DNA from: a virus
Taxonomy: Duplodnaviria; Caudoviricetes
IMG/VR virus record: IMGVR_UViG_3300032260_000003
Location: 1-60,588 of that record
Strand: one strand, 5' to 3'
DNA length: 60,588 nt
A program made the translations under genes and the position numbers. Positions within the stretch are counted from its first letter, which is position 1. The number at the start of each line of letters is the position of its first letter. This document shows positions 44,306 through 48,632 of the stretch, piece after piece. The notes under the pieces are model-generated. The model made no database searches and was not told where the DNA came from. It saw only the letters and a list, made by a program, of their open reading frames with translations.

Positions 44306-44634
44306 ATTACCCACGAATCCCCGATGAATTTACAGACGCAGAGCTTGCGCATGAAATCGAACGGCGCATCAACGCGCGCGCTGCGGGTGTTTGTCCGTAT
44401 TGCGGATATTCGCTTAATCGCGAAATATGCAATCAGCCGGATCAACACGTCGATCGAAAGCCGCCAAGCATTCCAGTGTGGGTGGTGCATCGCGATGTGC
44501 CATATGAGCTTGGGCACCTCATTGGGATTAGGCGCACTGAAAGCGCTGCGAAGATGTTGCGCGACGCTGAACGCTTGAACCATCCCTTCGATGACGACGA
44601 AGATTGGTCCGTGTACGAAGAATCCGTCGAGTGA
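44302..44634 (+). CDS. Hypothetical protein
   Basis: ATGA coupling; CPYC. Confidence 0.6.
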   Translation: MNYPRIPDEFTDAELAHEIERRINARAAGVCPYCGYSLNREICNQPDQHVDRKPPSIPVWVVHRDVPYELGHLIGIRRTESAAKMLRDAERLNHPFDDDEDWSVYEESVE

Positions 44635-47600
44635 AGGAAAAGGAAACACGGCGACAGCGCATCGAGCGGGTGCACGCGAAGGCGCTCGCGCGCGGGGCGA
44701 AGTGTCAGCGATGCCCGTTAGCGCTTTCGAAGCGGGGGCCGGTTCCTTCAACCGTGCGCAAAGCTCGCCTCGCTATCATCAACGAAGCGCCGGGGTTCAA
44801 AGAAGTCCTCGCGATGCGTCCGTTCGTCGACAAGGACGGACGGGAATTGCAGCGAGCACTTACGGCCGCTGATACGACGCGTGATGAGGTTGCGATCCTT
44901 CAAGTGTTGGAGTGTCAGCCGCCCGGCAACGGCTCCATCGCCGGCTACGAACGCGATATCAACAGACTGAACGCGCCCGCTGTCGAGGCGCATAAAGTCG
45001 CGCTCGCAAAATACCGCGAGGCGAAGAAGGCCGCGAAGAAAGCGAAGAAGGATCCGCCCGAGAAGCCGACGCCGCCGGTGTTGATGAAGTCGCCGATCGA
45101 ATGCTGTTCGCCGCGACTCCGCAAAGACCTCATGAAGGTGCGACCGAAGGTGTTCATGCCGCTCGGTCAGTACGCGCACAAAGCGCTCGCGAAAGTTCTC
45201 GATGTACCGCTCGGCGGCGACAAGAAATACCGCGGTGAAGTGCGTCTCGCCGAGTTGTCGAAACAGCGCGGACACCCATTGCCGCTGCCTCAATACATTA
45301 AGTGGAATCCGGACGACGTTGACGCGCTGAATGACGCGCTCGAACCCGAAGCGAAGATCCGGTACTACTCGTCAAAGCTGAAGATTGCGACAGCGAACAC
45401 GTTGAAGCTGAAGTCGGGCGCGTTCATCCTGCCGTCGTATCCGCCGCGCTACGCGATGATGAAGGCGCATCACATGGCGCACCGCATCCGCACGGACATT
45501 GCGCGTGCCGCGACGATTGCGCGCGAGGGCAAGCTCCGGTGGAAAGATGGGAAGGTGAAGATTGCGCCAACCGTTTCCGAGATCCGGAAGTGGGCGAAGA
45601 ATCAGATTCGGTTGAATCGTCAGCAGATGGTCGACATCGAGACCGGGCCGCGGAATCGCATGGAGGCGAAGGACGGCCTGCATATCGACGCGCTTGTTCG
45701 CTGCATCATTTTCACGTCGGGTCCCGAAGAAAAGGAAACCACGATCGTCGTGCCGTTCTTCACAAAGGCCGGCAAGCAATTCTGGACACCGCGAAATCAC
45801 AAGCGGGTTAAGTTCTGGTGCCGCAAAGTTCTCGACTCGTGCCCGACCGCCTTCCATAACGGCATCAGCTTCGACCGGCCGCGTTTGCTTCGTCAGAACT
45901 ACATGACGGACAACGCGAACAGCGGGTTCAAGGCGAACGATGATGACCTGATCATTGCGATGCACGACTCGCGCGAGCAGGACAACGAAAAGAATCTCGG
46001 CTACGTCATCTCGTGTTTCTTCGACATGCCGCTTCACAAGTCCGACGTCGACCACAAAGTCGCCGGCTCAGAAACCGAGGACGAGGATCTGTGGATTTAC
46101 GGCGGGCGCGACGGCGTCACTCAATCGCGCTGTCTTCGCCGCGTGAAGAAGTGGATCAAGGAAGACAAAACCGAAAAGCAGTATCGCTTCGACATGGAGC
46201 AACTTGCGCCGGTCATCACGGGCATGTGCATGACGCCGGTGCCCATCTTCTACCCGGAGATGCAGACCGCCATCACGATGTTGCGCGGTGAGACGAACAA
46301 GTACGAAACGCGCGTACGCACGGCGGTGAAGTCGCTTGCACCTGACGTCGTATGGCCCGCCGGCAAAGACAAGAAACACGTCTTCAATCCGCGGTCACCG
46401 AAACAGGTCGGCCAGCTTCTCTTCGATCACCTTGGCCACGAGCCCAAGCTCAACACCGAAGGGCATCCGTACAGCGCGGGTGATGGCGCTTCGACGTCGA
46501 TTGATGCGCTGCTCGCGCTCGAAGATTCCGGGAAAGTCGTCGGCGTTACGGCCGATTTGCTCGATGCGTTCATTCGATACAAATGCATGGAGAAGCTTCG
46601 CCAGATGGTGGAGGGCATTTCGTACGAGTACGCGCCGCATTGGGGCCCGGAGTATCGGCAGCTTTGGGTGAACTGGAAAATGCACGTCGTGCCGTCGGGT
46701 CGGCTTGCGTCGTCGCCGAACTTTCAAAACTGGACGTCGCTCGGCTTCTACAACATGAAGAAGTTGATCATGGCGCCGCCGGGGCACGTGATCGTTTCAG
46801 CGGATGGCGAGCAAATTGAGGCGCGCGTCTATGCGATTCAGTCGGGTGACCAAGTCATGTTGCGCGCTTTCGCTGAGGGCCTCGATGTGCATGCGGCCAA
46901 CGCCGCCACGTTGCTCGCCCACAACGACGAGGAAGAGTTGCGGCTCACGCATGAAATCGCACAGAAGAAGAAGGAAACGTGGACGCCGACGGATCAAGAC
47001 AAGCGGGACTGGCAGGAGATGGTCGAGCTTCGGCGCGATGCCGGCGACGAAAAGTATCGCAAGGTCGATATCGATCGCCCATCGCACGAGGCGCTCGTCG
47101 AGAACAATCTCAAGTACGCCGAAGAGGTTCGGCGCATCGCGAAGTTCTACTGCATCGCGGAGGGCCAGTTGGTGTTGACCGATCGGGGTGACGTACCGAT
47201 TGAGCAAGTGCGGGACGATGATCTCGTATGGGATGGAATTGAGTGGGTTGCGCATGATGGCGTGATCTACAAAGGGGAGCAGAAGGTTATTGAACATGAC
47301 GGACTCATCGCAACGCCGGATCACAAAGTCTGGCTCGAAGACGGACGCAAAGTCGAATTCGGTCAAGCCGCCGCCGAATGTGCGGTTCTTGCCCGGGGAG
47401 CAGAAGGTGGGCAGCCGCTTTGGTATGTGGCGGACCAAGAGCAAGGTGTGGAAGGATCGAGGGCATCGCAAGGTGATCGGCGAGTGCAAATGCGGCCTGC
47501 GCAAGGTTTTGTATCTCGACAACCTTCGAGCGGGAAAGTCGAAGGGATGCCGCTCGTGCGTGAAGCTGAAGGACACGCCGCACGAACTTCGAATGTGCAT

Positions 47601-48632
47601 GGCGGCGGCTGCGCAGCGTTGCAACAATCCGAAGAATCCGTATTTTCGGCACTACGGCGAACGTGGGATCGAGTTTCGGTTCGAGTCGAACGAAGCTGGC
47701 GCGCGTTGGATTTTGGACAATCTCGGGCCGAAGCCGGGCCTAAAAATGGAGTTGGACCGAATCGACAACGACGGTCACTACGAACCGGGGAATCTTCGGT
47801 GGGCAACGCGTTCGGAAAATCAACTCAATCGCCGAACCGGGCGGACGCGCAAGCCGAACTTGAATTTCACGTATCGGGTGACGGAATGGCCGTACGGCGA
47901 ATTCACTGTGCGGGCGAAGATGCTGGAAGGCAAAACACGCGAACAGATTTTCGCCGATGCGCGGTGGGCGGTGACGCGCAAATCAAAAGGATGGAGGCAG
48001 ATCGAGCGCCGATTAAAGGAACTCGACGAGTCTACGATATTCTGAATGCCGGGCCGCGCCGTAGATTCACAACATCATCTTGTTTAGTAAGCAATTGTTA
48101 TAATAAGCAGTACGGTGACGGTGATGATCTGTTTTCGACGATGCGTCGACAGCGCAATAAGGTCACCGGCAAGCGTGTGTTCCCGGGCCTGTCCGAAGAG
48201 TTGGTCGACACATGGAACGACCGTTGGGACTCGCGGCGCCCGTGGACGAAGCAATGGCACCGCAAGGTCGCTCGATACGTGGCCGCGCACGGCTACAATA
48301 TGACGCCGTTCGCCGGCCGCATCCGCCATTACCTCGGTGGGCCGAACAAGAAATTTGCGCCGCCGAACCACGAGTGCCAGGGCGGCGCAGGCGATTTGAT
48401 GAACGAAGCGCTCGTCGGCGTTAACAAAGACATCCCCCGTGGCGGTTGGTCGCCGTCATCAGGAATTTTCGGTCAGACGCACGACGATATTCGTGTCATC
48501 GTTCCGGAATCGCGAGCGGCCGAGGCGTGTGGCATCGTCGAGAAGCACATGAATCGGATGGTTCGAGTGGGCAATGTCGATATGCCGTTCTTGGCGACCG
48601 CAAAGTCGGCCCGATGTTTGGCTGACGTGTAG
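44631..48632 (+). CDS. polA: Family A DNA polymerase with N-terminal family-4 UDG-like domain, 3'-5' exonuclease and an intein
   Basis: CQRC..NEAPG..RPFV (UDG); DIETG, FHNGISFD, YGGRD (Exo I-III); SGRLASS, ADGEQIEAR (motif A), RRIAKFY/CYNKQYG (motif B), THDD (motif C). Confidence 0.93.
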   Translation: MKEKETRRQRIERVHAKALARGAKCQRCPLALSKRGPVPSTVRKARLAIINEAPGFKEVLAMRPFVDKDGRELQRALTAADTTRDEVAILQVLECQPPGNGSIAGYERDINRLNAPAVEAHKVALAKYREAKKAAKKAKKDPPEKPTPPVLMKSPIECCSPRLRKDLMKVRPKVFMPLGQYAHKALAKVLDVPLGGDKKYRGEVRLAELSKQRGHPLPLPQYIKWNPDDVDALNDALEPEAKIRYYSSKLKIATANTLKLKSGAFILPSYPPRYAMMKAHHMAHRIRTDIARAATIAREGKLRWKDGKVKIAPTVSEIRKWAKNQIRLNRQQMVDIETGPRNRMEAKDGLHIDALVRCIIFTSGPEEKETTIVVPFFTKAGKQFWTPRNHKRVKFWCRKVLDSCPTAFHNGISFDRPRLLRQNYMTDNANSGFKANDDDLIIAMHDSREQDNEKNLGYVISCFFDMPLHKSDVDHKVAGSETEDEDLWIYGGRDGVTQSRCLRRVKKWIKEDKTEKQYRFDMEQLAPVITGMCMTPVPIFYPEMQTAITMLRGETNKYETRVRTAVKSLAPDVVWPAGKDKKHVFNPRSPKQVGQLLFDHLGHEPKLNTEGHPYSAGDGASTSIDALLALEDSGKVVGVTADLLDAFIRYKCMEKLRQMVEGISYEYAPHWGPEYRQLWVNWKMHVVPSGRLASSPNFQNWTSLGFYNMKKLIMAPPGHVIVSADGEQIEARVYAIQSGDQVMLRAFAEGLDVHAANAATLLAHNDEEELRLTHEIAQKKKETWTPTDQDKRDWQEMVELRRDAGDEKYRKVDIDRPSHEALVENNLKYAEEVRRIAKFYCIAEGQLVLTDRGDVPIEQVRDDDLVWDGIEWVAHDGVIYKGEQKVIEHDGLIATPDHKVWLEDGRKVEFGQAAAECAVLARGAEGGQPLWYVADQEQGVEGSRASQGDRRVQMRPAQGFVSRQPSSGKVEGMPLVREAEGHAARTSNVHGGGCAALQQSEESVFSALRRTWDRVSVRVERSWRALDFGQSRAEAGPKNGVGPNRQRRSLRTGESSVGNAFGKSTQSPNRADAQAELEFHVSGDGMAVRRIHCAGEDAGRQNTRTDFRRCAVGGDAQIKRMEADRAPIKGTRRVYDILNAGPRRRFTTSSCLVSNCYNKQYGDGDDLFSTMRRQRNKVTGKRVFPGLSEELVDTWNDRWDSRRPWTKQWHRKVARYVAAHGYNMTPFAGRIRHYLGGPNKKFAPPNHECQGGAGDLMNEALVGVNKDIPRGGWSPSSGIFGQTHDDIRVIVPESRAAEACGIVEKHMNRMVRVGNVDMPFLATAKSARCLADV
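47151..48095 (+). mobile_element. Intein (315 aa) inserted in PolA motif B
   Basis: Starts CIAEGQLV; block B TPDHKV; block F VYDILN; ends LVSN followed by Cys+1; removal restores RxxxKxxxYxxxYG. Confidence 0.92.
47407..48045 (+). CDS. HNH homing endonuclease encoded in the +1 frame inside the intein
   Basis: GSRFG..ECKCG..GCRSC..RCNNPKNPYFRHYGERGI..LDRIDNDGHYEPGNLRWATRSENQLNRR; GGGGAG 6 nt before GTG 47407. Confidence 0.88.
   Translation: MGSRFGMWRTKSKVWKDRGHRKVIGECKCGLRKVLYLDNLRAGKSKGCRSCVKLKDTPHELRMCMAAAAQRCNNPKNPYFRHYGERGIEFRFESNEAGARWILDNLGPKPGLKMELDRIDNDGHYEPGNLRWATRSENQLNRRTGRTRKPNLNFTYRVTEWPYGEFTVRAKMLEGKTREQIFADARWAVTRKSKGWRQIERRLKELDESTIF

Follow-up and report, generated by a model that had tools for sequence, protein, structure and literature searches.

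In a stretch of 60,588 nucleotides (nt) that makes up the IMG/VR virus record IMGVR_UViG_3300032260_000003 (hereafter the window; completeness estimate 58%) we found a family A DNA polymerase gene (PolA) that is interrupted by an intein and, inside this intein, a second gene in a different reading frame. The class-1 intein comprises 315 amino acids (aa; 945 nt, positions 47151–48095) and runs from Cys1 to a terminal Ser-Asn that is followed by Cys+1. The nested gene (47407–48045) lies in frame +1 relative to the polymerase, starts with GTG, ends with TGA and encodes a 212-aa homing-endonuclease-like protein of an HNH family (PHROG_374). All features of the window described here are on the plus strand. 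The evidence set out below makes it very probable that the locus is a PolA motif-B intein with a nested +1 nuclease gene, that the linker between its splicing domains is spliced out and that the element homes.

In the mechanism that we propose, ribosomes on the polymerase message would read through the nested DNA in the host frame and thereby add a disordered linker of ∼200 aa, for which the only constraint would be the absence of stop codons. The intein would then excise itself together with the linker. We infer protein splicing of the precursor from the sequences, because the host frames of this essential gene are free of stops across the relatives. Internal initiation at GTG 47407 would yield the nuclease-like protein as a separate product, which, judging from the distribution of its family, would presumably cut or nick intein-less polymerase alleles, so that gene conversion copies the whole element.

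The intein and its host polymerase

The precursor open reading frame (ORF; 44604–48632) encodes 1342 aa from a TTG at 44604 and joins a family-4 uracil-DNA glycosylase (UDG) domain to the intein-interrupted polymerase (Pfam UDG, 5.6e-14; DNA_pol_A, 4.5e-29). It is listed in the protein database as a 1333-aa form (P0001). The N-extein (44604–47150) ends with EEVRRIAKFY and the C-extein (48096–48632) begins with CYNKQYGDG. The insertion site between RRIAKFY and CYNKQYG thus separates the two halves of what we take to be polymerase motif B. This motif is uninterrupted in the nearest polymerase relatives (34–37% identity), for example YLRTIAKRFVFLEAYGG. An intein-less allele of exactly this polymerase was found neither among the viral contigs, which held no close relative, nor in the protein database, where the best matches were the 34–37% identical ones.

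The boundaries given by the initial annotation were confirmed. Cys1 (TGC, 47151–47153) is in the frame of the 1342-aa ORF, the intein ends with CLVSN (AAT, 48093–48095; VYDILNAGPRRRFTTSSCLVSN) and Cys+1 is encoded by TGT (48096–48098). The splicing blocks are likewise intact, as had been claimed. The N-terminal splicing domain (aa 1–90, 47151–47420) contains block A with C1 and block B with T55-x-x-H58 (TPDH), and C1, T10, D28, G29, H35, T55 and H58 were invariant in 16 sequences. The C-terminal splicing domain (48012–48095) contains blocks F and G (RRVYDILNAGPRRRFTTSSCLVSN), and D296, N299, G301 and N315 were invariant in 35 sequences. Block B (T55-P-D-H58) and the C-terminal N315 were both invariant across the 35 aligned family members.

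We built an AlphaFold2 model of the intein on these 35 family members. The model's pLDDT scores (predicted local distance difference test) were 88–98 for aa 1–90 and 96–98 for aa 291–315, with 69 for aa 281–290. Between the two domains the host frame encodes a stop-free, non-conserved linker that is predicted to be disordered (aa 91–287, 47421–48011). Averaged over blocks of 10 residues, the scores were 59 for aa 91–100, 37–50 for aa 101–270 and 59 and 69 for the two blocks of aa 271–290. The model has no secondary structure in aa 101–270, and in the whole linker there are no strands and only a single short helix (274–283). A Foldseek search of the Protein Data Bank (PDB) with the model gave inteins or Hint-type domains in all of the 38 best rows. 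The best of these was NpuDnaE with E = 2.9e-3, which is above the 0.001 line, and a template modelling (TM) score of 0.49; the TM scores to the targets were 0.4–0.5. Pfam Hint_2 matched the intein with E = 0.029, which does not reach its cut-off. Read in the polymerase frame, the sequence matched no domain of Pfam, NCBIfam or PHROG beyond the Hint ends, as the initial annotation had noted for the centre. The folded Hint-type ends and the foldless centre thus indicate that the insert is a class-1 intein whose centre forms no domain in the polymerase frame.

Two features of the splicing domains count against an active intein at this site. The penultimate His is absent (Ser-Asn), as it also is in the related loci L012, L024, L026 and L031, and in block F the window has an Arg where most relatives have His. 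A penultimate His is not universal among active inteins, however, and Ser-Asn is therefore not disqualifying.

The nested gene and its two reading frames

Frame +1 opens at 47290, 39 codons upstream of GTG 47407, and stays open as far as 48045 (251 aa). The nested protein matched PHROG_374 ('HNH endonuclease') with E = 3.5e-31, PHROG_3377 with 5e-22 and PHROG_2081 with 1.1e-12. Besides PHROG_374, four PHROG nuclease families were matched at E ≤ 1.1e-6, including phrog_1035 ('endonuclease VII', E = 1.1e-6). A structure model built on an alignment of 30 sequences had a mean pLDDT of 87.7 and gave 82 matches at E ≤ 0.001 to phage proteins among the predicted viral structures of the BFVD, many of them named HNH, AP2 or homing endonuclease. 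The TGA stop (48043–48045) lies across the host codons CTG/AAT (Leu-Asn in the block F string VYDILN), so that the overlap with block F proposed earlier was borne out. Among the relatives the distance from the nested stop to the end of the intein was 50 nt in eight rows, 8 nt in six rows and 20 nt in one row; the window, with 47 nt after its TGA, was grouped with the 50-nt rows.

Both frames had been said to stay open for more than 600 nt, and we observed no stop in the 214 host-frame codons that overlap the nested ORF. The host frame was kept open in none of 5000 synonymous-codon permutations of the nested gene (mean 9.4 stops) and in none of 5000 resamplings with the codon usage of the exteins (mean 9.9 stops). 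T-ending HNH codons were found in 0 of 59 cases before AA, AG or GA, compared to 32 of 153 cases elsewhere. The GC content at the three codon positions was 0.55/0.46/0.70 for the HNH frame and 0.60/0.42/0.75 for the exteins, whereas the host-frame linker showed 0.70/0.55/0.46, which is not coding-like. The shuffles, the avoidance of T-ending codons and the GC pattern together indicate that it is the HNH frame in which this DNA is 'written', whereas the polymerase frame is just kept free of stops.

We then compared the selection on the two frames in a 309-aa subgroup of the relatives, using 16 lineages with a gap-free alignment and nucleotide identities of 62–81%. In the centre of the intein the aa identity was 66.8% for frame +1, compared to only 34.6% for the host frame; the N-terminal splicing domain, read in the host frame, showed 67.8%. 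The ratio of nonsynonymous to synonymous substitution rates (dN/dS) gave the same picture in four pairs of closely related loci. For L083/L085 we obtained 0.08 in the HNH frame, 2.18 in the host frame and 0.08 in the splicing domain, and for L086/L097 the values were 0.08, 4.57 and 0.11, respectively. The pair L090/L095 showed 0.08, 1.30 and 0.14 and the pair L102/L123 showed 0.08, 2.39 and 0.11. Two near-identical pairs were set aside, as they contained too few changes for dN/dS. The sequence comparison thus indicates that across the family the nested gene is protein-coding and functional. A point on the other side is that these ratios describe relatives and not the lineage of the window itself, because the window is without a close relative in the collections. 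Some apparent motifs were rejected as candidates: RQRRxLR and WDRVSV in the host frame and 'NMTDSS' in the +1 frame are shadows of conserved motifs in the respective other frame.

The frame itself may matter. At an offset of +1 a stop in the host frame requires a T-ending HNH codon before AA, AG or GA, and an open host frame therefore costs synonymous choices only, which would leave the sequence of the nested protein unconstrained. At +2, Met codons, or Leu or Val codons, ending in TG or TA would be forbidden before codons that start with A or G, a small cost at the protein level, and in frame the nested gene's own stop would truncate the polymerase. The low cost of +1 may explain the success of this form. 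A founder effect, in which a single old invasion was followed by spread, explains the uniform frame equally well.

The initial annotation also described a complete +1 HNH gene with its own ribosome binding site and start codon. The full-length ORF and the GTG were recovered. Free-standing homologues begin 3–10 residues ahead of the same G-x-x-[FY]-G motif (M..G..[FY]G) and end at stops of their own, and the N-terminus V/M-G-S-R-F-G of the nested protein can be aligned to theirs. The proposed ribosome binding site fared less well. The Shine-Dalgarno-like GGGGAG (47395–47400) lies 6 nt upstream of the GTG and counts as weak evidence, because its position is not conserved across the relatives. 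Several observations speak against a well-defined start. The Shine-Dalgarno-like element varies in position, and in most relatives GGAG abuts the start codon (spacer 0–3 nt) and also encodes host-frame 'TG' codons. Directly before the N-terminal motif L013 has only a CTG and L021 has no start codon. In the 309-aa subgroup the start is ATG in 21 of 24 loci, and the remaining L102, L115 and L150 (position 2757–2759) have ATT, ATA or ATC. A scan upstream of the nested gene detected no promoter-like site. The three loci without ATG could use near-cognate starts or could be recently silenced copies; in L150 the following codon is a GTG. We also considered 'CCGGAG' as a conserved Shine-Dalgarno site and rejected it, as it lies anywhere between 0 and 9 nt from candidate starts and specifies the 'TG' that is conserved in the host frame.

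If the +1 ORF were instead reached by programmed +1 ribosomal frameshifting, the product would be a fusion of N-extein, N-terminal intein part and HNH protein that ends at 48045. The +1 frame is open from 47290 onwards and the Shine-Dalgarno spacing is poor in many relatives, both of which would suit such a fusion. However, we saw no shift-prone site, the RNA fold around the nested start is unremarkable (z = 0.08), and the apparent conservation of the upstream +1 frame is a shadow of block B in the host frame. Most relatives have an ATG or GTG at the position where the free-standing homologues begin. We regard frameshifting as very improbable and internal initiation at GTG 47407 as the likelier route to the nested protein.

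The label 'HNH', also used in the earlier description, is drawn from PHROG profiles only. The protein contains a Cys cluster that is a putative zinc ribbon (C27, C29, C48 and C51; 47485–47559), in which C27, C48 and C51 were invariant and C29 was conserved in at least 90% of 30 sequences. A PDB sequence search (single sequence and profile) gave as its sole match, a weak one, the ZZ-type zinc region of RSC8. The core motif D117-R118-I-D-N-D-G-H-Y-E-P-G-N129 ... N141 (47755–47829) is HNH_3-like; R118, I119, Y125 and N129 were invariant and D117 and N141 were conserved in at least 90% of the 30 sequences. Every invariant or ≥90% conserved column of this alignment is kept in the window. Pfam HNH_3 itself matched the nested protein at residues 127–139 only (E = 0.27, under the cut-off) and reached an E of at most 0.0018 in three of the 30 relatives, all under the cut-off.

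Several results argue against a canonical HNH nuclease. None of the His residues is invariant in the alignment of 30 sequences, and many relatives have N or D in place of H124. At the position of the HNH_3 general-base His the protein has an Arg (R118), according to an alignment made by eye that the HNH_3 match supports only in part. NCBIfam gave no match and Pfam none that was significant, and neither the PDB sequence searches nor Foldseek against the PDB returned a significant nuclease; for the whole three-part model Foldseek found nothing at E ≤ 0.001. A solved structure for the family was not found. The nested protein might be functional without the HNH mechanism. It could bind DNA in a sequence-specific manner or be a nickase with other catalytic residues, for instance, and a different enzyme may then be needed for mobility. 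The absent His, the sub-threshold HNH_3 match and the missing PDB match would all fit such a protein, and neighbours in the ESM-Atlas and BFVD are labelled NUMOD, AP2 and helix-turn-helix (HTH) DNA-binding, although we treat these labels as leads only. The strong matches to the HNH families PHROG_374, 3377 and 2081 point the other way, as does a distribution like that of homing endonucleases, with free-standing copies across phage genomes and intein copies at conserved sites of essential genes. We consider a protein of this other kind unlikely and prefer a nuclease that acts on intein-less alleles.

Recurrence and history of the element

Among viral contigs we found 124 relatives of the nested HNH protein. 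Of the first 30 loci that we examined, 17 have the HNH relative enclosed by a far longer same-strand ORF in another frame, and these ORFs encode family A polymerases, helicases and unnamed proteins, all with the same intein family. To look for related inteins with and without the insert we used the N-terminal intein domain and took the best 80 of at least 563 matches in IMG/VR and the best 80 of 131 matches in bacterial genomes. Both sets are ranked by similarity and contain near-duplicates, so that the counts describe loci and not independent events.

The HNH gene was at +1 in 120 of these 160 loci and in frame inside the intein in none; most of the others are mini-inteins. The IMG/VR set contained it in 62 of 80 loci, always at +1 and never in frame, at +2 or antisense, and the remaining 18 are mini-inteins of 106–175 aa. 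The 62 include the remnants L122 and L142, the locus L127 and two loci that are cut by contig ends. The bacterial set, which consists mostly of Bacillota prophages and includes complete chromosomes, showed the +1 layout in 58 of 80 loci and no HNH in 21 (one of them cut by the locus end). The last one is L225 (1601–3112), where the mini-intein in the PolA belongs to the same family and is 139 aa long, and where the polymerase stop is followed at once by a free-standing HNH homologue (2612–3112); this could represent an adjacent-gene stage of the association between intein and HNH gene. In L127 (929–4591) we observed a 184-aa intein without detectable HNH and a +1 HNH match further downstream in the same host ORF (3666–4223), which probably sits in a second intein. 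The HNH family matched 798 phage records. Isolated phages, namely the Streptococcus Javan phages and Gardnerella phage vB_Gva_AB1, carry the HNH under an annotated DNA polymerase gene (observed as an overlap irrespective of frame), and most of the 40 phage matches listed have only the polymerase annotated. The earlier expectation that annotation would miss the nested gene agrees with this.

A deviating layout was found in L154 (2486–3361) and L155 (2501–3376), where the host frame stops in block F (VYDIP*) and the +1 HNH is intact; the stop counts against the proposed mechanism. Beyond this stop both loci continue with unrelated AT-rich DNA and a capsid-like ORF. They represent a truncated polymerase or a rearrangement.

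The recurrence also bears on whether the layout is an artefact of assembly or sequencing, whereby two compensating indels displaced an ordinary HNH domain from the polymerase frame. The window comes from a metagenomic assembly and the only sequencing run found for it is probably its own source, both of which would fit an artefact. However, an independent Logan contig (run X1, probably from the source sample) is identical over 47000–48250 (0 differences, 0 gaps). The 120 loci, complete bacterial chromosomes among them, share the +1 layout, and the isolated phages with an HNH under their polymerase gene (again as an overlap) add to this. Furthermore, T-ending codons are avoided only before AA, AG and GA, and the nested gene has its own start and stop as the free-standing homologues do. 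The artefact is effectively refuted and we give it practically no chance.

Some relatives have lost the HNH gene in part or completely. L122 (2501–3052) and L142 (2501–3061) have inteins of 184–187 aa with only the first ∼25–35 HNH residues left, at +1, and are decay intermediates between the full and the mini form. The flanks of the mini-inteins L105 and L111 are identical to those of the full elements L086 and L090, which indicates that L105 and L111 arose by in-frame deletion of the HNH gene and are not ancestors; these deletions fit the decay phase of a homing cycle.

Such losses raise the question of whether the window itself contains a silent relic, that is a mini-intein with a long junk linker in which the nested ORF is intact only because it is young. 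Besides the remnants and deletion derivatives, it favours a relic that selection on the exact lineage of the window is not measurable. No RNA run with the stretch was listed; the only run found is a sediment metagenome. In contrast, the copy in the window keeps all invariant and ≥90% conserved columns, has a full-length ORF with start codon and Shine-Dalgarno-like site, shows coding-like GC at its codon positions and is predicted to fold with confidence. We judge a relic to be improbable, and an active nested gene remains the preferred explanation.

The intein is much better conserved than its hosts and appears to have moved between host genes. Its splicing domain is 55–70% identical to those of relatives, whereas the polymerases of the window and L012 share only 28% identity in a BLASTP comparison that includes the intein. 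Members of the intein family occupy motif B of many divergent polymerases, motif A (L024, L031), a third PolA site (L020), helicases and other genes. We compared the distances between HNH proteins with those between splicing domains and obtained a Mantel r of 0.43 that was reached by none of 2000 permutations. This is consistent with both parts being inherited together as a unit, although shared ancestry inflates tests of this type.

The HNH family also occurs in other inteins. In L014 and L017 a divergent PolA intein contains it in frame +2, with the nested stop coinciding with the intein end. In Salmonella phage vB_SenS-Ent1 (HE775250; L163:2256–3152) it lies at +2 in an unrelated PolA intein, and this match recurs in many Jersey-type Salmonella phages. 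These +2 cases indicate that inteins were probably invaded by this HNH gene family more than once. The initial annotation had proposed that a free-standing HNH gene invaded a mini-intein. As there are free-standing homologues with the same N-terminus and their own stops and 0 of 160 loci have the gene in frame, invasion is favoured over an in-frame domain that became frameshifted, and the order of events would then be that of a free-standing gene entering a mini-intein.

Regarding the host gene, the N-terminal family-4 UDG-like domain of the window (44604–45350) is fused to a polymerase in L012 and P0002–P0006 as well. The nearest UDG-PolA relatives P0002, P0004 and P0005 have an intact motif B and inteins at other sites, inside the UDG domain in P0002 and as a mini-intein after ...DLHEY in P0004 and P0005. 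This polymerase clade seems to be a hot spot for inteins.

Related systems and implications

The initial annotation assumed the arrangement to be novel. Inteins with out-of-frame endonucleases have already been published, and the element in the window belongs to this concept as a new and very widespread example. The idea is credited to Gorbalenya 1998 by 10.64898/2026.09.14.751524, and the same work is cited in 10.1101/2025.01.02.630785; both papers are from the Gogarten laboratory. The former describes a cyanobacterial dnaX intein that agrees with the PolA intein in several respects: its centre is disordered in the host frame, an overlapping endonuclease ORF with Shine-Dalgarno motifs lies on the same strand, omega takes low values for the endonuclease frame but high ones for the host frame, and empty alleles occur alongside full and mini-intein ones. 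Its authors propose the secondary invasion of a mini-intein. The dnaX case differs in that it involves a LAGLIDADG endonuclease at +2 in a cellular gene, compared to an HNH-family protein at +1 in a phage, and the intein family described here, unlike that one, occupies many genes and sites.

For actinobacteriophage inteins 10.1101/2025.01.02.630785 likewise reports endonuclease genes in a separate frame and an in-frame centre without recognisable structure, proposes free-standing endonuclease genes as the invaders and states that annotation pipelines miss them. The same-strand case there is 'endonuclease VII-like' in 'frame 3', whereas LAGLIDADG or VSR-like genes on the antisense strand make up the others. 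Non-canonical inteins were 63 of 784 in that study and are called rare, whereas the +1 HNH form is the majority among our loci (120 of 160). The ShiLan domain of a mycobacteriophage methylase (Arsenault, Gosselin & Gogarten 2025, PMC11855218) shares an HNH that is out of frame, starts with GTG and has zinc-finger motifs, a stop-free host frame and a stop codon where the insert terminates. This HNH is in frame 3, the domain has no detectable intein, and its peptide is thought to be retained as a loop of the methylase, unlike the PolA insert, which is flanked by intact splicing domains. Fractured genes (Dassa et al. 2009, PMC2677866) also have a free-standing endonuclease gene at the point where an intein's endonuclease is inserted, mostly in phage replication genes. 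There the host gene consists of two ORFs whose products are joined by trans-splicing and the endonucleases are GIY-YIG or Vsr-like, whereas the host frame is continuous in the window. The PolA intein of the Salmonella Jerseyvirus vB_SenS-Ent1 (HE775250) resembles our case in its out-of-frame HNH homologue, although GenBank annotates the intein only as 'encoding splicing domains', and differs in its unrelated intein family (CLHRHTQ...VAHN, then C) and in the +2 position of the HNH. We found no paper on the Jerseyvirus HNH in a literature search that was aimed at the general concept only, and open-access text gave no prior description of PolA motif-B inteins that carry this HNH family at +1.

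The counts suggest that inteins with an out-of-frame HNH are common rather than rare. A broader reading, which we advance tentatively and rate as plausible but short of probable, is that the out-of-frame layout is the stable and dominant architecture of a large and old intein-HNH lineage in phages and prophages of many bacterial phyla and not a rare transitional accident. The +1 frame would persist as the only offset that constrains nothing but synonymous sites, and with weak internal initiation the amount and folding of the essential polymerase would no longer be tied to a nuclease that may be toxic. If this is true, many large inteins that are recorded in databases as 'endonuclease-less' or 'decaying' are mis-scored, and the usual view that inteins acquire endonucleases by in-frame fusion has to be complemented by a second route of equal success.

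The finding bears on how inteins acquire endonucleases, on censuses that score large inteins without a homing endonuclease as decaying and on gene callers that forbid long overlaps on the same strand. Its interest lies in the scale of the phenomenon, in the clean signature of dual coding and in an abundant, uncharacterised nuclease family without the canonical catalytic His. The locus would be a clear case of dual coding within an essential gene, with selection for a protein in one frame and, in the other, for nothing more than the absence of stops, so that protein splicing can discard it.

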